A stretch of 64,000 bases of DNA, from the NCBI GenBank assembly GCA_963666115.2, contig CAXXET010000006.1, forward strand, positions 288,001-352,000, read 5' to 3'. Position 1 is the first letter of the stretch, and every line of letters begins with the position of its first letter. The DNA is from Dehalococcoidia bacterium. Lineage in GTDB: Bacteria > Chloroflexota > Dehalococcoidia > UBA6926. The notes under the pieces were generated by a model, which saw only the letters and a program-made list of their open reading frames with translations, was not told where the DNA came from and searched no databases. Shown here piece by piece: positions 41,053 through 52,528 of the stretch. Both the position numbers and the translations under genes were made by a program.

Positions 41053-41454
41053 ATGGCGCGGTCAATCACATTGGACGAGGCAAACACGGTCATCGCCGGC
41101 GCAATCGCCAAGGCGGAGGAGCAGGGGACGAAGATGAGCATCTCCGTCGTCGACGCGGGCGGGCGTTTGGTCGCCTTCGCGCGGATGGACGGCGCGATCT
41201 GGGCGGGCGTCTACGGCTCGCACGGCAAGGCGATAGCCTCCGCCGCGTTCGGTCGACCGTCGGGATTCTTCCAGGAGATGGCGAGCAACCCGATTTTCGC
41301 GGGCATCAAGGCCGCCGAGGGCGACCACATGATCCTGAGCCTGGGCGCAGTGCCGATCGAAAAGGACGGAGAGGTCATTGGGGCGGTCGGCGTCGGCGGC
41401 GGCACGGGCCAGCAGGATGAGGATTGCGCGGTTGCGGGGGCTGGGGGGGTGTAG
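41053..41454 (+). CDS. GlcG/HbpS family heme-binding protein
   Basis: SVVDAGGRLVAFARMDGA, GKA, IGAVGVGGG..QDEDCA. Confidence 0.9.
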   Translation: MARSITLDEANTVIAGAIAKAEEQGTKMSISVVDAGGRLVAFARMDGAIWAGVYGSHGKAIASAAFGRPSGFFQEMASNPIFAGIKAAEGDHMILSLGAVPIEKDGEVIGAVGVGGGTGQQDEDCAVAGAGGV

Positions 41455-41496
41455 GCGGTAGGTGGTATCCTTTTGGGGTAGTGGGAGGGGGAGACT

Positions 41497-42366
41497 ATGC
41501 CTGATGGGGAGAGCGTCGCGACATACCGAGCATTGAGCCTGGGTGCCGGAGTCCAAAGCTCGGTGCTTGCTTTGTTACTATCGCGCGGCGACCAGCGGCT
41601 TGTCGATGCAGGCTATCCGAAACCAGATTTGGCGGTGTTTGCTGATACCGGGTGGGAACCGGACTACGTCTATGAGCATCTGGACTGGTTGGAAACGCAG
41701 CTTGATTTTGAACTCATCCGGGTGAGCGACGGCAATCTCAGGGAGAATTTGAGGCGTGCCAAGACGGTAACCGGGCATGACTTTGTCGACGTTCCGATGT
41801 TCGTGACGAATCCCGATGGCGGGGCAGGTATTCTCCGTCGCCAATGCACGAATCACTACAAGATCCGGCCGATCCATCGGGCAGTGAGGGAACGGGCTGG
41901 AGGAAAGCGCGGACGCCCGTTCCCGAAAAACACCCACGCCGAGATGTGGCTTGGAATCTCAACGGATGAGATTGTGCGAATGAAGCCGAGCCGTGAACCA
42001 TGGACGGTGCATCGATGGCCGCTAATCGACATCGGTATGTCGCGCCAGGACTGCCTCGACTGGTTTGAGAGTGAATACCCTGACCGGCATCTGCCCAGGT
42101 CGGCCTGTGTCATCTGCCCCTATCGCTCTGACGCCCATTGGCAGGAGATGCGCGAGTACGAGCCCGAGAGCTTTGACGAGGCGGTCGCATTTGACAGGTG
42201 GCTGCGAAAGTCGTCAAAGAACCCGGTGCGGCAAGTGCTTGCGGGTCGCCCGTATCTGCATAGGACGCGCAGACCCCTTGGTAGCGCAGTTGAGGGTCTT
42301 GCGAGCGGCACACTTGTTGATGATGGGCTGTTTGAGGATGAATGTGAAGGTCACTGTGGCGTCTGA
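41497..42366 (+). CDS. PP-loop (adenine nucleotide alpha-hydrolase) / PAPS-reductase-like protein
   Basis: LSLGAGVQSS, FADTGWE, RQCT, WLGISTDE, RSACVICPY, C-terminal ECEGHC. Confidence 0.8.
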   Translation: MPDGESVATYRALSLGAGVQSSVLALLLSRGDQRLVDAGYPKPDLAVFADTGWEPDYVYEHLDWLETQLDFELIRVSDGNLRENLRRAKTVTGHDFVDVPMFVTNPDGGAGILRRQCTNHYKIRPIHRAVRERAGGKRGRPFPKNTHAEMWLGISTDEIVRMKPSREPWTVHRWPLIDIGMSRQDCLDWFESEYPDRHLPRSACVICPYRSDAHWQEMREYEPESFDEAVAFDRWLRKSSKNPVRQVLAGRPYLHRTRRPLGSAVEGLASGTLVDDGLFEDECEGHCGV

Positions 42367-43591
42367 AAGTTCTACTATCCAGGCCCTTTATGGCCTTCAT
42401 CCTTATCAGCGCCAAGTTTTGGGCGATATAGTCGCGGCGCTTGCAGAGCCCGAGGGCCGGGTTGTTGCTCACCTACCTACTGGTGCTGGCAAGACCAGAA
42501 TTGCTAGCCACGTTGCGGGGCACATGCTCAACAGCAGTTCTGGAGATAGTGCCCTAGTTATCTGGCTTGCGTCCACCGAGGAACTATGTGACCAGGCCGC
42601 TGAAACACTCGAACGCGCCTGGCAGCATGTGGGCCAGAGAAACGTAACAATGAATCGGTTTTGGGGTGGACATCGAATCGATTTGCGACAGATTGAAGGT
42701 GGCTTTCTGGTTGCCGGGCTGGCGAAACTCTGGGCAGTTGCCAGCCAGGACAATACCTGGAGTCCTCATCTCGCACAAAGAACTGCGGGAGTGATCTTTG
42801 ATGAGGCTCACCAGGCAGTGGCGAGAACCTATTCATATTTGACGGAACAACTCATTGGATCAAGGACCCCGTTGCTTGGACTGACCGCAACTCCTGGCCG
42901 TAAAGCGTCCTTGAGTGATGAGGATTATGCCTTAGCGGAGATGTTTGCTCACAAGAAAGTGTCGATCGATCCCAAAGGGCACGTTAGCCCGGTTACGTAC
43001 CTGATTGCGAACGGATACCTTGCCGACCCTCGCTTTGTCACGAGGGCATTCACCGGCCAGCAGCGCGATTCACTTCGAACGAATAACGGCGATTATGCTC
43101 AGGAACTGCTCGACGAATTGGGGAGGGATCGAGAGCGCAACCAGAATATTGTAGATTGGACAGCAGACGCAGCGACTAGGCACAAGCGGATCATTGTATT
43201 CTGTCCTTCGGTCGAAAGTGTCCAGCAATGTGGGCAGCAGTTGGAGTTAAGGGGCCTCCAAGCAAACGGGATTACAGCAACGACTCCCCAAGATGTCCGC
43301 TCTGAGATTATTCGCAAATATCGCGAGACCTCGTCCACCCCCAGGATAATCTTGAATTATGGTGTCCTCACTGCGGGCTTCGACGCGCCACAGACTTCAT
43401 GCGCAATCATTGCGCGCCCGACTCAATCGCTGGTACTATATTCTCAGATGGTAGGTCGTGCGCTGCGGGGTCCGCGCGTTGGGGGAAATAGGTGGGCCGA
43501 AATACTCACCGTTGTCGACATGGACTTACCGGGGTTCGACTCTGTTACTGACGCATTTAGGAATTGGGAGGAGCTATGGCAGGAGAACTGA
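42356..43591 (+). CDS. SF2 DEAH/ResIII-like helicase
   Basis: LHPYQ, PTGAGKT, DEAH, GLTATPGR, LTAGFDAP, QMVGRALRG; start is GTG 42356 or ATG 42338. Confidence 0.92.
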   Translation: MASESSTIQALYGLHPYQRQVLGDIVAALAEPEGRVVAHLPTGAGKTRIASHVAGHMLNSSSGDSALVIWLASTEELCDQAAETLERAWQHVGQRNVTMNRFWGGHRIDLRQIEGGFLVAGLAKLWAVASQDNTWSPHLAQRTAGVIFDEAHQAVARTYSYLTEQLIGSRTPLLGLTATPGRKASLSDEDYALAEMFAHKKVSIDPKGHVSPVTYLIANGYLADPRFVTRAFTGQQRDSLRTNNGDYAQELLDELGRDRERNQNIVDWTADAATRHKRIIVFCPSVESVQQCGQQLELRGLQANGITATTPQDVRSEIIRKYRETSSTPRIILNYGVLTAGFDAPQTSCAIIARPTQSLVLYSQMVGRALRGPRVGGNRWAEILTVVDMDLPGFDSVTDAFRNWEELWQEN

Positions 43592-45456
43592 CGCCTGACG
43601 AGAGGGAAGAATTCTCGATCCTTACTCCAGAAAGGCTTGTGGAGGCCCTGCGGGATACCAGATACAACAGCACCGCACATGCTATCGCTGAACTTGTCGA
43701 TAATTCTATCGAGGCCAATGCGCGAGAGATTAGCCTGCTTTGCGCAGAGGAATACGAGATGGTTGTCGAGCGAAGCAAGCGAAGAGTATCCGAGATAGCT
43801 GTCCTCGATAACGGTGATGGAATGGACCCGGAGACGTTAGCGCAGTCATTGATTTTCGGCGGAGGAACCAAGCACGATAGCCTGCGTGGGATGGGGAAAT
43901 ATGGAATGGGCCTGCCGACAGCATCGCTATCGCAATGCACGAAAGTCGAGATATGGAGTTGGCAGTCAGGTTACGAGAGCGCCTGGCATTCGTGGATTAA
44001 CGTCAAGGAGATAATGGCTGGCCGCCAAACTATTCCGATGCCAGACCAGGAGAAGATTCCGGATCGCTGGCTGCGCGCGGCAAGTACGGATATGTTCGAG
44101 AACCTGCCACTTTCGCACCAAAAATCGGGCACTCTGGTCGTATGGTCAGATCTTGACAAGATGCAGTGGAAAACGAGCAGCGCAATCCTGAGGAATACTG
44201 CGGAGGAGGTCGGACGGATCCATCGGCACTTTATCGCGTCAGGACGTTGCCGCATTCAGACTGTCAGCTTCTCTGCGACCAATCCAGACGACAAGCAAGC
44301 GGACATTGTCGTCCCTAACGACCCTACTTATTTGATGCCGACTACATCCACGCCCACGCCTTGGGGCGAAACTCCAATGTTTAGAGAGTGGACGAGAAAG
44401 CACTACGGCATTGAAGCGGGTGGCAGAGAAAACACAATTGATGTCGTGTACTCGATAGTCAAACCAGAAGCATTGCAAACCGACAGGGTTAGTATACAGC
44501 CGGGCAGACAGCCACACGGTGCACATGCTAGGAAGAACATAGGAGTGTCCGTGGTTCGGGAAGAACGTGAGATTATTCTCGACAAGTCATTCATGAGTGA
44601 GGGCGGCAGTTCTCGCGACCCGCGGCAGCGGTGGTGGGGTTGTGAAGTTAGGTTCGGGCGTGACGCCGACGAGTTTTTCGGGATAGACACCAAAAAGCAG
44701 GCCGTCTGGAAATTCACTAAGGCTGCTCAAGAGCTCGCCAGTGATGATAGACCAATAGCAGTTGTTCTTGATGAAATGGGTGTGGAGAGAGACCCGATTT
44801 ATGAATTGGTTTTCGAAATCAAGAATGAAATTGGAAACCTGATGCGGGAAATCAATAAGATGTTCGGCCAGCGAACGGGCGAATCGACTGAAGACAGGAA
44901 GCACAGCCCAGAGACGAAGGCTGCCGGCAGCATGTCAGAAGCCATAAAGGACGCAATCGAGGCCGGAGAAGAAAAGGAGACGCAGACAGACGAAGACCGG
45001 CGGACAATTCCTCCTGACGAGAGAGAAGAGGCGATCGCACTGGAACTAGAAGAATCGGGGCGGCCTCCCGAGAGAGCCAAAGAGCTTGCAATGGGACTGG
45101 TGCAACAGGAGCAAGGTTTTGTCTTTGATGTTGGACAAGTTTCAGGATACTCCATTTTTGACGTGCGTTCCAGCAAAGGCATATTGCACCTGACTCTGAA
45201 TATGGATCACCCAGTTTACGACTACTTGAACGTTATCGAACAAGATATCCGTGAAAACGCCGACGAGAACAGCCCCGAATTCAAGGCGGCTGTGGCAATT
45301 CGCCTACTATTGCTATGTTGGGCACGCATGGAAGACCAGGCTGCTACTCGCGAGGAGCGGATGCAGATACAGGATATTGCGGCGAAGTGGGGACGTCACG
45401 TTGACCGGGCGGTGAGGCACGCTAGCTCGGAGGACCCGGAGATGCCGACTGGATGA
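43576..45456 (+). CDS. MORC-type GHKL (HATPase_c_3) ATPase
   Basis: AIAELVDNSIEA, DNGDGM, GKYGMGL, SGTLVVW; late LNMDHP motif; RBS GGAGG. Confidence 0.88.
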   Translation: MAGELTPDEREEFSILTPERLVEALRDTRYNSTAHAIAELVDNSIEANAREISLLCAEEYEMVVERSKRRVSEIAVLDNGDGMDPETLAQSLIFGGGTKHDSLRGMGKYGMGLPTASLSQCTKVEIWSWQSGYESAWHSWINVKEIMAGRQTIPMPDQEKIPDRWLRAASTDMFENLPLSHQKSGTLVVWSDLDKMQWKTSSAILRNTAEEVGRIHRHFIASGRCRIQTVSFSATNPDDKQADIVVPNDPTYLMPTTSTPTPWGETPMFREWTRKHYGIEAGGRENTIDVVYSIVKPEALQTDRVSIQPGRQPHGAHARKNIGVSVVREEREIILDKSFMSEGGSSRDPRQRWWGCEVRFGRDADEFFGIDTKKQAVWKFTKAAQELASDDRPIAVVLDEMGVERDPIYELVFEIKNEIGNLMREINKMFGQRTGESTEDRKHSPETKAAGSMSEAIKDAIEAGEEKETQTDEDRRTIPPDEREEAIALELEESGRPPERAKELAMGLVQQEQGFVFDVGQVSGYSIFDVRSSKGILHLTLNMDHPVYDYLNVIEQDIRENADENSPEFKAAVAIRLLLLCWARMEDQAATREERMQIQDIAAKWGRHVDRAVRHASSEDPEMPTG

Positions 45457-46304
45457 TTGTCTCAGAAAGTACCGGCTTCAGTGTTCCTCCTCAGAATGCC
45501 GTCTTTATTGCCGCTCCATACATAAGGGCTGCCGCTCTGACTCGGTTCCTTGCGAATGTGCCCTCTGTGCCAGAGTTGACCTGTGTTACTCGCTGGCAAC
45601 CTAAGGATCTGGCGCTTGGTGTATCAGAGGTGGAGTGTCGACGGATCATCCTTAACAGGGGAGGCCATTTCCTGCTGCACCCAACGTTGCACGCCAAGTA
45701 TTATCGATTTGATGATGAGATTCTGATTGGCTCGGCCAATTTGACGATGTCGGGTATGGGCTGGTCATGGAGATCGAATCTGGAGATACTGGCACCGCCC
45801 TCAGACGCATTTGACTACCTAGCATTCGAGTCGGAACTCTTAGCGAGAGCCAGACCGATTTCCGACGTCGAATTCGAGCAATGGGCGTCTATCCAAGATC
45901 TCGGAACAGAGGCTGTGGGTTCGACGCCACAGTTCGCTCAAGCACCTGATTGGCGACCGGTTACTCGCGAATTTGAGAATTTCTCCAGAGCCTACTACGG
46001 CCGGTTACGCGAGATACCTTCAATTGATGAGGCGCGACGGGCCCAAAGCGATATTGTGACTTTGCAGTTGCCGCCCAACCAAGTGCCTGAATCACTGCGC
46101 AGACTGGTGACTACAGCCCTCTTGGCGTCTCCCTACGCGTCGGATGTCCTGCGCGTTCAGCATATGGACGCGGTGGATGCTGCTCGTGAGTTGGCTACGT
46201 TGTATGACCTGCCGTTACACTTGGCGCGGCGCGACATGGAAACCGTCCATAATTGGCTGAGAGAATTAGCCCCGGAACTGCTACCATCATCGGAGGATCA
46301 GTAG
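45453..46304 (+). CDS. Phospholipase D (single HKD) nuclease-like protein
   Basis: AAPYI, LHAKYYRFD, IGSANLT, NLE; ATGA overlap with the ATPase gene. Confidence 0.87.
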   Translation: MIVSESTGFSVPPQNAVFIAAPYIRAAALTRFLANVPSVPELTCVTRWQPKDLALGVSEVECRRIILNRGGHFLLHPTLHAKYYRFDDEILIGSANLTMSGMGWSWRSNLEILAPPSDAFDYLAFESELLARARPISDVEFEQWASIQDLGTEAVGSTPQFAQAPDWRPVTREFENFSRAYYGRLREIPSIDEARRAQSDIVTLQLPPNQVPESLRRLVTTALLASPYASDVLRVQHMDAVDAARELATLYDLPLHLARRDMETVHNWLRELAPELLPSSEDQ

Positions 46305-46328
46305 CGCCATCGCAGAAAGGACACCGCC

Positions 46329-46802
46329 ATGACAAACCAACAACAATACGACGGCCCATCCCCCGCGCTCTCTATCTACGTCAACTTTGATGGGAACTGC
46401 CGGGAGGTGTTTGATGCTTACCTGGCTGTGTTTGGGGGGGAGTTCTCCAATTTGATGACGTTTGCGGATTTGCCGCCGGATGATGATTCGCCGCCTTTGC
46501 CGGACGGGTGGGGGGACAAGATCATGCACGTCGCCCTGCCCATCGGCGACGGGGTCCTCATGGGGAGCGACATGCCGCCCGGCTTCGGCCCGCCCCTCGC
46601 CGCCGGCAACAATTTCTCCGTCAGCTATGCCGCGCCCACGCGCGACGAGGCGAACCGCGTCTTCGCGGCCCTCGCGGAGGGCGGGGAGGTCACGATGGAT
46701 CTCCAGGACATGTTCTGGGGCGACTACTTCGGCACCTGCACTGACCGGTTCGGCATCAACTGGCAGGTTCACCACACAGTGGCCGAGGACGCGGGCGGGT
46801 AA
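46329..46802 (+). CDS. VOC/PhnB family protein
   Basis: YVNFDGNCRE, IMHVAL, LMGSD, MFWGDYFGTCTDRFGINW. Confidence 0.9.
   Translation: MTNQQQYDGPSPALSIYVNFDGNCREVFDAYLAVFGGEFSNLMTFADLPPDDDSPPLPDGWGDKIMHVALPIGDGVLMGSDMPPGFGPPLAAGNNFSVSYAAPTRDEANRVFAALAEGGEVTMDLQDMFWGDYFGTCTDRFGINWQVHHTVAEDAGG

Positions 46803-52452: not shown

Positions 52453-52528
<76 letters not shown>

Follow-up and report, generated by a model that had tools for sequence, protein, structure and literature searches.

A four-gene cassette of a PAPS-reductase-like enzyme, a helicase, a GHKL ATPase, and an HKD nuclease as a candidate DNA modification-restriction system

What is the role of four overlapping genes lodged between an HbpS/GlcG-like gene and a glyoxalase/VOC gene in a Dehalococcoidia bacterium? 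The initial annotation of the window (the whole stretch of DNA analyzed, 64,000 nucleotides) saw in them a PP-loop enzyme for self-marking, together with an effector made up of helicase, ATPase, and nuclease. The features concerned are as follows.

41053 to 41454: HbpS/GlcG-like gene, left flank
41455 to 41496, no strand: left junction, a 42-bp spacer from the HbpS/GlcG-like stop to the gene A ATG, read from the sequence
41497 to 46304, plus strand: cassette, four overlapping genes A-B-C-D, 4.8 kb
41497 to 42366, plus strand: gene A, 289 aa, PAPS-reductase-like enzyme of the PP-loop fold
42338 to 43591, plus strand: gene B, 417 aa, SF2 helicase/translocase; likely start ATG 42338
43576 to 45456, plus strand: gene C, 626 aa, GHKL (Bergerat-fold) ATPase; likely start ATG 43576, listed start TTG 43564
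45453 to 46304, plus strand: gene D, 283 aa, predicted single-HKD nuclease of the phospholipase D fold
46305 to 46328, no strand: right junction, a 24-bp spacer from the gene D stop to the glyoxalase/VOC ATG, read from the sequence
46329 to 46802: glyoxalase/VOC gene, right flank

The layout first described for this block held up in each respect. All four genes are on the plus strand and, using the likely starts, overlap by 29, 16, and 4 nucleotides (A/B, B/C, and C/D, respectively); the neighbors are of the glcG-like and VOC kinds that had been named; and the block is indeed more AT-rich than its surroundings, with a GC content of 0.52 to 0.58 versus 0.62 to 0.70 in the flanks (500-nucleotide windows). 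The contigs of the genome have a GC content of 0.62 to 0.64. The stretch GGGAGGGGGAG lies immediately 5' of the gene A ATG, inside the left 42-bp spacer, and a scan for promoters and terminators gave counts that were not above those in shuffled sequence. We saw no direct repeats or integrase at the borders, and the sole tRNA is located 6 kb downstream of the cassette. A longer open reading frame for gene B, from TTG 42065, reads across gene A in a different frame and is unlikely to be translated; in several loci, tblastn matches start at residues 92 to 104 of this long frame. Searches of the four proteins against Pfam, PADLOC, and NCBIfam agreed with the earlier reading that DNA methyltransferase, DndD/DndE, SspB/SspC, and cysteine desulfurase are absent from the cassette, which also has no DndB or regulator gene within it. 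A DndB-like gene paired with an MT-A70 methylase was observed 58 kb from the cassette, to which it is unlinked.

The same site was compared in five genomes of the genus (G002, G003, G004, G007, and G008). It is empty in G004 and G008, where the flanking genes are about 131 and 154 bp apart, which bears out the proposal that the block is an insertion. In G002 it holds an A-B-C-D cassette, and in G003 and G007 a different cassette with a HerA-like ATPase and a methylase-like gene. A site that is empty in some relatives and holds one or the other cassette in others suggests a defense hotspot.

Neighborhood conservation had been named as a check on the initial annotation, and the same four-gene combination does recur, with the order A-B-C-D kept in 29 of 35 related loci found with gene A. 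Among the 32 loci with a gene A at least 63% identical, those beyond the complete ones were one cut by a contig end and two truncated. No fifth conserved gene was found in the flanking 8 kb to the left or right; the largest cluster of outside open reading frames covered four loci. The hosts belong to at least four phyla, with loci in Chloroflexota, Latescibacterota, Alphaproteobacteria, and Binatota, across which gene A is 63 to 70% identical; over all loci it is the best conserved of the four proteins (63 to 92%). Phyla are intermixed at short distances in a quick tree of gene C. Within the genus, the distribution is patchy, with a gene A at least 92% identical in 2 of 22 genomes, G000 included. 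Between the window and its nearest relative (locus L001), gene A is 92% identical but gene C only 40%, so the partners are not strictly coinherited. Viral contigs scanned with gene C gave no pattern match, in a scan sensitive to close relatives only. Taken together, these observations are best explained by a horizontally mobile, self-contained cassette that moves between uncultured members of the Chloroflexota, Latescibacterota, Binatota, and Alphaproteobacteria.

Gene A is the candidate DNA-marking enzyme. Its predicted structure (AF2 model, pLDDT 91.5) has a Rossmann-like core with an N-terminal nucleotide-binding loop and places it in a PAPS-reductase-like clade of the PP-loop (adenine nucleotide alpha-hydrolase) fold. 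The best Foldseek match of the model is CysH (6vpu, E 7e-5), and VIA Z values are 11.9, 10.7, 10.6, and 10.6 against the PAPS/APS reductases 7rge, 6vpu, 7lhr, and 2goy, respectively, and 9.3 to 10.3 against the Fe-S tRNA thiolases NcsA and TtuA. The Pfam PAPS_reduct score is 19.5 bits, under the cut-off of 22.5, and there was no NCBIfam match. Searches of PDB sequences returned nothing at E <= 1, and a PDB profile search returned a sole match, "PptA" (21fy, E 5e-4), spanning the CxxC-bearing half; a literature search retrieved no paper tying PptA to PAPS reductases or DNA modification. The loop of the protein, SLGAGVQS, is of the CysH type, and the cysteines C117, C204, C207, C283, and C287 are conserved, arranged as a single Cys, a CxxC pair, and a flexible ECEGxCG tail at the C terminus. 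The pattern is reminiscent of APS reductase, with its Fe-S ligands and its nucleophile in the tail. The original description was of a short LSLGAGVQS type with a Cys-rich tail, rather than a typical DndC; C283 and C287 are conserved, no PADLOC DndC match was found at E <= 0.01, and gene A is not a canonical DndC.

The relationship of gene A to SspD is distant. It matches the PADLOC SspD model PDLC02782 at 43 bits (E 9.7e-12), versus 382 to 457 bits for four SspD proteins linked to the trio described below, and it is 23% identical to true SspD over 241 aligned columns, the CT and CxxC cysteines being common to both. Where SspD has GLSGGRDS, a SGGxDS loop of the ATP pyrophosphatase type, gene A has SLGAGVQS, which aligns to SSSFGIQAAV of CysH, in an alignment that is itself weak (E 0.3 to 0.4). 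Gene A was rejected as a canonical SspD, since both a full-length match to the SspD model and the SGGxDS loop are missing. With a loop of the CysH type and not SGGxDS, gene A may use a chemistry other than phosphorothioation by adenylation.

Relatives of gene A also occur on their own. We found stand-alone homologues in 49 phage and 184 plasmid records, including one that directly follows a DUF1738 gene on a conjugative plasmid of Agrobacterium and another amid small phage genes, mostly of unknown function. The stand-alone LSLGAGVQS-type PAPS-reductase-like family comprises 4164 clusters at 50% identity, from phages, plasmids, and defense cassettes. These solitary occurrences suggest that the enzyme can act without SspB or SspC. 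The genome itself encodes a separate housekeeping CysH (178 bits), and Aminotran_5 is matched six times in it, with a top score of 505 bits.

The remaining three genes form a candidate effector trio, and their catalytic motifs, first reported as intact, are present and conserved in orthologues. Gene B carries motifs I, II (DEAH), III, and VI of a predicted SF2 helicase (GAGKT, DEAH, TATPGR, and QMVGRALR, conserved in 36 aligned rows), and its Pfam scores for ResIII (62.7 bits), DEAD (54.5), and Helicase_C (49.7) are all over the cut-offs. Helicases of type I, type IV, and PbeA enzymes are among its matches, with PADLOC hits to PbeA (1.1e-16) and a type IV REase (1.2e-10), an NCBIfam hit to RadD (9e-28), and PDB hits to RadD (6jde, 2e-17) and SauUSI (7clg, 5e-8).

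Gene C has the Bergerat-fold motifs of a putative GHKL ATPase of the MORC/MutL-like kind, namely ELVDNSIEA (N box), DNGDGM (G1), and GKYGMGLP (G2), conserved in 32 aligned rows. Its MORC/MutL-like N terminus is followed by ~430 residues of no named family, and it also matches the N terminus of MzaB (PADLOC/NCBIfam). The earlier label "MORC ATPase" stands in part: the Pfam HATPase_c_3 match (76.4 bits) upholds the GHKL assignment, but N-terminal PDB matches to MORC2 chains are weak (E 1.2e-3), and "GHKL, MORC-like" is the better name. In MORC proper, the GHKL domain is followed by a transducer domain of the S5 fold; for residues 210 to 630, the ESM Atlas gave unnamed clusters only, with Morc6_S5 at 0.77 serving as a lead only.

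Gene D displays the motif HAKYYRFD...GSAN, conserved in 30 aligned rows; among 28 sequences, H80, K82, G93, S94, and N96 never vary and D87 hardly does. With this HxK(x)4D...GSxN motif set on a PLD fold in the AF2 model (pLDDT 84.9), it is predicted to be an HKD/PLD nuclease. The Pfam PLDc_2 score is 20.9 bits, under the cut-off of 27, the PADLOC match to DrmC has an E value of 6e-7, and a PDB sequence search returned nothing at E <= 1. Foldseek matches are all weak (1e-3 to 0.3) and are led by SauUSI (E 1e-3), R.NgoAVII (3.5e-3), and BfiI (1.8e-2), then NucT and Nuc; the C-terminal helical domain of the model (about 170 to 283) has no match. No sequence-recognition (TRD-like) or sulfur-binding domain was found, and the C-terminal regions of both C and D gave no match to a named family. 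Complex prediction from alignments of C (626 aa) and D (283 aa) scored 0.00 in both runs, which gives no answer either way on binding.

On plasmids, we viewed 11 of 13 records with a full-length gene C homologue. At 9 of the 11 loci, a trio of helicase, GHKL protein, and third gene adjoins SspD-type genes or lies within 5 kb of them, usually with SspB and SspC. The tested loci gave strong PADLOC matches to SspB (E 9e-100 and 3e-106), SspC (E 0), and SspD (E 1e-115 to 5e-138). A cysteine desulfurase is present in four viewed loci (three of these among the 9) and a DndB/DGQHR gene in three. The other two loci have no annotated PAPS reductase nearby in the PLSDB gene tables, which are incomplete, and on this account the trio may work without a mark. 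This link of B-C-D homologues to SspB-SspC-SspD phosphorothioation genes is new here. The trio has no PADLOC model, and our literature search found no paper on it. The company it keeps on plasmids suggests that it is an effector module of sulfur-modification systems; judged by gene content, a single enzyme of another clade appears to stand in the cassette in place of SspBCD.

On balance, we consider it probable that the cassette combines modification with restriction, A marking self DNA, probably with sulfur, and B-C-D attacking DNA that is unmarked. Gene A, as an Fe-S-type PAPS-reductase-like enzyme, would place a mark on host DNA, most likely a sulfur-based one (phosphorothioate or related), working alone without an SspB nickase or SspC ATPase and drawing its sulfur from housekeeping cysteine desulfurases. 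Gene C would be an ATP-driven DNA clamp or sensor, gene B would translocate on DNA, and gene D, presumably as a dimer, would cut DNA lacking the mark; single-HKD nucleases are active as dimers. The pairing of marking enzyme and effector proposed at the outset gains support from the trio's association with SspBCD elsewhere and from a site shared with another defense-like cassette; the chemistry of the mark and the role in defense are both things that we infer. The proposal that the system is undescribed also fits what was found: PADLOC gave single-domain matches only, there was no NCBIfam equivalog, and a literature search for the gene combination, which could miss a description in supplements, found no paper describing it.

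Other readings of the same genes have to be weighed. It is conceivable, if somewhat unlikely, that the architecture is as proposed but the mark is something other than a backbone phosphorothioate, with A writing, for example, a thiolated or differently derivatized base or taking sulfur from APS/PAPS and B-C-D reading that mark. This might be expected from the CysH-like loop in place of SGGxDS, from folds closest to PAPS/APS reductases and then, closely, to NcsA and TtuA, and from a Cys, CxxC, and ECEGxCG tail that resembles APS reductase. However, the other partners of the trio are true SspBCD phosphorothioation genes, gene A is homologous to SspD over those 241 columns, and its alignment with CysH is weak. 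Alternatively, there may be no self-marking at all, and B-C-D would be a stand-alone ATP-dependent nuclease system, type IV or abortive, with A altering or erasing an invader's mark, supplying a cofactor, or being a phage-derived antidefense gene. We hold this to be unlikely: gene A comes first in the cassette with a 29-nucleotide overlap with B, is the best-conserved protein and present in all 29 complete cassettes, and a sulfur-modification module accompanies the trio at 9 of 11 plasmid loci. The two plasmid loci without an annotated PAPS reductase do point toward such a nuclease system, as do the typically stand-alone phage and plasmid homologues of gene A and the resemblance of B and D to SauUSI, a modification-dependent enzyme.

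The four genes could also make up a modification machine only, in which D is a nickase replacing SspB and B and C are ATPases replacing SspC, with an epigenetic or antioxidant role and no restriction. Gene A does lack SspB and SspC partners, and Ssp phosphorothioation requires a nickase and an ATPase, according to PMC12707154 and PMC12914056. Yet the trio is also found beside complete SspB-SspC-SspD sets having their own nickase and ATPase, gene A homologues occur alone on phages and plasmids, the closest structures to gene D are restriction endonucleases, and the insertion site is common to another defense-like cassette, all of which make this reading very unlikely. That gene A is an ordinary sulfate-assimilation paralogue whose linkage to B-C-D is accidental has a probability close to negligible; its fold and nucleotide loop are those of CysH, but the genome has its own CysH, and gene A keeps the same four-gene order at 29 loci in four phyla and lies in a low-GC insertion missing from close relatives.

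Returning to the modification-restriction reading, the cassette offers a compact four-gene test bed, in which an unnamed effector trio is joined to a candidate writer that consists of a single gene and belongs to a very large family. We tentatively suggest, as a possibility that is far from assured, that the LSLGAGVQS family consists of one-protein DNA-sulfur writers using a CysH/APS-reductase-like route that requires neither nickase nor motor ATPase, that the trio is an interchangeable reader-cutter for either SspBCD or this enzyme, and that mobile elements take along just the writer so as to be read as self. Members of the gene A family in phages are, as a matter of routine, annotated as genes of sulfur metabolism. 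Should A prove able to mark DNA by itself, thousands of "PAPS reductases" of phages and plasmids would have to be reread as enzymes of self-disguise, with the trio becoming a new restriction module of the Ssp type. PMC13551039 credits a phage PAPS reductase with promoting the evasion of Dnd.

To our knowledge, few DNA-sulfur defense systems are known (Dnd, Ssp, BREX type 4, and Tdp); the inventory of their effector modules is still growing, and there is debate over the route by which sulfur reaches the backbone. The cassette is not a Dnd system, as A has no DndC match and DndD and DndE are missing from it. In BREX type 4, a PAPS-reductase-domain protein (BrxP) is the modification enzyme, as described in PMC12839542, and gene A may be comparable by analogy in such a role. 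An assignment to BREX type 4 was rejected; by PADLOC, gene A has neither a BrxP match nor a DUF4007 fusion, and no BrxC, PglZ, or BrxL partner is present.

There is also a likeness to the PADLOC candidate PDC-M33. In a sister clade of gene A, which is 49% identical and has the same cysteines, the enzyme is fused to DUF6339 (PDC-M33C). The fusion comes after PDC-M33A, an ATPase of the sacsin-like GHKL type, and PDC-M33B, both in three genomes of the genus and in Nitrosopumilaceae. The PDC-M33 models match this sister cassette only (loci L042 and L034), and identity with PDC-M33 was rejected, the window proteins having no match to its models. When C was compared by BLASTP with the M33A protein, and D with the M33B protein, neither pair showed significant similarity, and PDC-M33, unlike the cassette, has neither helicase nor PLD protein.

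Among restriction enzymes, gene B matches both PbeA, an HKD nuclease-SF2 helicase fusion of the Dnd-linked PbeABCD, and SauUSI, whose PLD domain is the best fold match of gene D. An HKD nuclease with an SF2 helicase is described as a recurrent restriction partner of Dnd genes in PMC10853773. In the cassette, however, nuclease and helicase are separate proteins with a GHKL ATPase gene between them, and the CxC ABC ATPase, DndE-like protein, and small-protein partner of PbeABCD are absent. ATP-dependent enzymes of the NgoAVII/CglI type resemble the cassette in joining a PLD-fold nuclease to separate helicase-like ATPase subunits, as described in PMC4267654 and PMC5737866. R.NgoAVII is a fold match of gene D, as noted, but this type is without a GHKL subunit or a PP-loop enzyme, and the C-terminal domain of gene D is helical and was not matched to the DNA-binding domain of R.NgoAVII/BfiI. 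The latter domain is B3-like.

The Ssp system (SspABCD with SspE or SspFGH) resembles the cassette in coupling a PAPS-reductase-fold enzyme, here an SspD homologue, to a separate ATP-dependent effector. Unlike it, the cassette has no SspB (DUF4007), SspC, SspA, SspE, or SspFGH by Pfam and PADLOC; SspC is a BrxC-like ATPase of about 1100 aa. The trio was rejected as SspFGH because SspF carries a Walker A motif and SspH is FtsK-like according to PMC8092258, and B, C, and D have no PADLOC match to SspE or SspFGH.

Searches of PDB sequences and folds with the cassette proteins returned no Tdp-named chains. TdpABC, from An et al. 2025 in Nat Chem Biol, is reportedly a hypercompact phosphorothioation system of thermophiles. 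It has two restriction genes versus three in the cassette. TdpC alone suffices for phosphorothioation, according to PMC12914056, and TdpABC would resemble the cassette in that one PP-loop enzyme is the whole modification module, joined to a small multiprotein restriction module.

Four co-directional open reading frames (ORFs) occupy positions 41497 to 46304 of the window:

41497-42366, + strand: gene A, PAPS-reductase-like protein, 289 aa
42338 (ATG, most likely start; listed as TTG 42065), + strand: gene B, SF2 helicase, 417 aa
43576 (ATG, most likely start; listed as TTG 43564), + strand: gene C, GHKL ATPase, 626 aa
45453-46304, + strand: gene D, HKD/PLD nuclease, 283 aa

For B, tblastn matches to the long ORF start only at residues 92 to 104 in several related loci, and the TTG-initiated extension (42065-42337) overlaps A in a different frame, making the ATG at 42338 the most likely start. 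The extension aligns even between genomes because the DNA of A is so conserved, an artifact that could mislead gene callers. With the revised starts, the overlaps between neighboring genes are 29, 16, and 4 nt, consistent with a single translationally coupled operon. The GC content of the cassette is 0.52 to 0.58, compared with 0.62 to 0.70 in its flanks and 0.62 to 0.64 across the nine contigs of the host genome, and the 2.07-Mb genome holds one copy.

B is an SF2 helicase by Pfam (ResIII, 62.7 bits; DEAD, 54.5; Helicase_C, 49.7), and among named proteins it is closest to RadD, PbeA, type I R subunits, and the type IV enzyme SauUSI. The N terminus of C is a GHKL domain (HATPase_c_3, 76.4 bits) akin to the N terminus of MzaB and, weakly, to MORC2; the other ~430 residues of C matched unnamed clusters only. 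D carries a single HKD motif, with a PLDc_2 score of 20.9 bits (below the cut-off) and a DrmC match at E 6e-7, and its nearest structures are the PLD-type restriction endonucleases SauUSI, R.NgoAVII, and BfiI, at weak E-values. Catalytic motifs are kept in the aligned orthologs of B (36 rows), C (32 rows), and D (30 rows). Between the window and its closest relative, locus L001, identity is 92% for A, 68% for D, 63% for B, and 40% for C. The divergence of C is spread along its entire length (window 43576-45456 versus L001:9996-11954), and both proteins sit on long branches in the C tree. Judged from these alignments, C is the quickest-changing component of the cassette, and the pattern points to either rapid divergence or replacement of that one gene. 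Such change would suit a part that meets phage proteins, or a swapped part.

Searched with A, a set of one genome per species yielded 35 loci, and tblastn with all four proteins recovered A-B-C-D in identical order at 29 of them. At L014, the contig ends directly after C. The cassettes at L022 and L027 are truncated, the former retaining just the first 143 residues of C and the latter ending within B, while at L032 to L034 (Nitrosopumilaceae) A is 48 to 49% identical and lies in a different neighborhood. The helicase of L017 is split across two frames (L017:8557-10072), and from their sequences the L017, L022, and L027 cassettes are decaying. A Latescibacterota locus carries a short remnant of another copy, comprising a piece of A and the beginning of B (L004:6043-6397), ~2 kb upstream of a complete cassette. 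When the ORFs of the 35 loci were clustered, A was present in 35, B in 32, C in 31, and D in 29; the next-largest clusters were shadow or overlapping ORFs within the cassette, and the largest cluster outside it reached only 4 loci, so the unit is four genes. Record titles place these loci in Chloroflexota (Dehalococcoidia, SAR202, Caldilineaceae, and Anaerolineales), Latescibacterota, Alphaproteobacteria, and Binatia metagenome-assembled genomes (MAGs), across which A is 63 to 70% identical. In a quick tree of C, alphaproteobacterial, Latescibacterota, and Binatota rows are interspersed among Chloroflexota rows at short distances.

Closer to the window's genome, A was matched in 6 of 41 related genomes (its own counted): at 92% or more in its own genome and G002, at 49% in three same-genus genomes, and at 32% in one other genus. 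Both flanks were searched in five same-genus genomes. The HbpS/GlcG-like and glyoxalase/VOC genes lie ~131 and 154 bp apart in G004 and G008, so the site is empty there; G002 has the same cassette at the site, and G003 and G007 have a 4.6-kb insert of three other genes. In G007 (L056, G007:C1:177900-183800), these encode a 696-aa HerA (DUF87)-domain ATPase, a 439-aa protein without a Pfam match, and a 379-aa protein that weakly matches N6_N4 DNA methylases, and the ORF sizes of the G003 insert (L057, G003:C1:1401500-1407300) agree with these. This HerA/methylase-like insert may be another unnamed defense or restriction-modification-like system. In the window, the cassette is spaced 42 and 24 bp from its neighbors, and no repeats, integrase, or adjacent tRNA were seen at its borders; a tRNA-Ala (CGC) at 52453-52528, the window's only detected RNA gene, is 6 kb downstream rather than at a border. 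The site is a variable slot with defense-like cargo.

Homologs of the trio B-C-D were also found on plasmids. A tblastn search with C returned 54 plasmid records, 13 of them with at least 80% of C covered, and we viewed 11 of these 13 (H52 to H62). The C homolog is flanked by a helicase gene and a third gene in all 11.

Gene neighborhoods of the trio on plasmids
Pannonibacter, Pleomorphomonas: SspB-SspC-SspD-helicase-GHKL-PLD, one direction
Hymenobacter: as above, plus one extra small gene
Mesorhizobium, Roseobacter: Ssp genes convergent with the trio
Trichormus, Planktothrix, Geminocystis: SspD gene upstream of the trio; in Trichormus and Geminocystis also a large DndB-domain protein, and a cysteine desulfurase downstream
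Aminobacter: SspC-SspD at most 5 kb from the trio
Cyanobacterium HL-69: cysteine desulfurase, the only such annotation nearby in an incomplete gene table
Agrobacterium pAtCFBP7129b: no such neighboring genes

In the loci tested, PADLOC matched SspB at E 9e-100 and 3e-106, SspC at E 0, and SspD at E 1e-115 to 5e-138. Compared with the window's proteins, the Trichormus homologs show 44% (B), 35% (C), and 35% (D) identity. In Agrobacterium and Aminobacter the third gene has a 359-aa product, which in Agrobacterium matches a PADLOC endonuclease model, not PLD. Because an SspD-type gene lies within 7 kb in 9 of the 11 trio loci, the trio behaves, as far as gene neighborhood indicates, as an effector module for sulfur modification of the Ssp type. 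PADLOC 2.0 holds no model for the trio, and no description of it was found in the literature searched; its identity with SspE or SspFGH was rejected on the description given in PMC8092258.

Some of these loci hold further genes. The Ssp-trio clusters of cyanobacterial plasmids L060, L064, and L069 are interleaved with toxin-antitoxin pairs, and in the Planktothrix locus an additional DUF2779 gene separates the GHKL gene from the PLD gene. The window's own genome encodes a 769-aa DndB/DGQHR-domain protein, similar in size to those preceding the trio in the Trichormus and Geminocystis plasmids, which adjoins an MT-A70 methyltransferase (G000:C6:268289-271303; L071:6290-9304) and lies 17 kb upstream of the window start and 58 kb from the cassette.

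The window's cassette has A in the place of these Ssp genes. A scored 19.5 bits against Pfam PAPS_reduct (cut-off, 22.5) and E 9.7e-12 against the PADLOC SspD model, and had no NCBIfam match. It is homologous to a trio-linked SspD, but at just 23% identity over 241 columns; the alignment retains C117 (the CT cysteine) and both CxxC cysteines, C204 and C207. An alignment of 45 diverse family members shows no variation at C117, C204, C207, and C287 and hardly any at C283; G16, G18, Q20, S21, D50, and T51 are likewise invariant. The AF2 model (pLDDT 91.5) is confident save for the last 11 residues, which bear ECEGHCG. Its best structural neighbors are PAPS/APS reductases (Z 10.6 to 11.9, with Foldseek in agreement), followed by the Fe-S tRNA thiolases NcsA (10.3) and TtuA (9.3) and by LarE (9.2). 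Fe-S APS reductases possess a single cysteine, a CxxC pair, and a further cysteine on their flexible C-terminal tail, and the pattern in A appears similar.

The A family is large, with 4164 representatives at 50% identity clustering at E ≤1e-3 and 1182 at 1e-30; with clustering at 90%, E 1e-3 was passed by 6615 of the 8000 candidates scored, of which the best 120 are 64 to 92% identical and unnamed. Stand-alone relatives were found in 49 phage records (Pelagibacter, Geobacillus, Thermus, Salisaeta, and Mycobacterium abscessus prophages among them) and 184 plasmid records, the majority of these from Agrobacterium and other Rhizobiales. One directly follows a DUF1738 gene on a conjugative plasmid, DUF1738 being the domain at the N terminus of the antirestriction protein ArdC; another lies amid small phage genes, mostly of unknown function, and an oyster Vibrio phage protein matches A at 28%. 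A sister clade, 49% identical with the same motifs, is fused to DUF6339 and follows the PADLOC candidates PDC-M33A (sacsin-like GHKL) and PDC-M33B in three same-genus genomes and Nitrosopumilaceae. The cassettes at L042:4161-8586 (G013) and L034:4523-10361 (a Nitrosopumilus MAG) consist of PDC-M33A, PDC-M33B, and a 540-aa fusion of DUF6339 (PDC-M33C) with the PAPS-reductase clade; the archaeal one has its M33A in two parts and is followed by a DndB gene. Two unrelated cassettes therefore combine this enzyme clade with a GHKL-type ATPase.

Taken together, the anatomy of the cassette makes modification-restriction most likely: A would be a writer marking the host's own DNA, and B-C-D would attack DNA lacking the mark. 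Plain sulfate assimilation by A is a rival reading, and reductases are indeed its closest structures; the homology to SspD, the substitution pattern (the trio occurs with SspBCD or with A), and the stand-alone relatives on mobile elements, which fit a protective mark, argue for a writer. That one enzyme could suffice is plausible from passages reporting that TdpC is by itself sufficient for phosphorothioation (PMC12914056) and that a phage PAPS reductase helps evade Dnd (PMC13551039, citing Piel et al. 2022). The genome's cysteine desulfurases could supply the sulfur (six Aminotran_5 matches, best 505 bits). Alternatively, A may write a different mark. Its nucleotide loop reads SLGAGVQS versus GLSGGRDS in SspD, and the family profile aligns weakly there (E 0.3 to 0.4) to SSSFGIQAAV of Vibrio CysH; this CysH-type loop may denote chemistry other than backbone adenylation.

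The four proteins could also form a modification-only machine, but the structures nearest to D and the kinship of B to restriction helicases support a cutter. For C, analogy with GHKL and MORC proteins suggests a clamp or sensor, the weakest step of the proposal. Lastly, B-C-D might be a mark-independent nuclease system. Two of the 11 plasmid trios are without an annotated writer, and A falls short of the SspD model and the Pfam cut-off; both points count against modification-restriction. Also, no sequence-recognition or sulfur-sensing domain was found in the cassette proteins, and the cassette is without its own desulfurase or regulator. We still favor modification-restriction.

By the membership tests for each, the cassette falls outside Ssp, Dnd, BREX type 4, and PDC-M33. 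In the literature and databases searched, neither the effector trio nor its combination with one non-SspD enzyme appears to have been described. The logic, however, is that of known phosphorothioate modification-restriction systems, and the cassette is thus not a new category.
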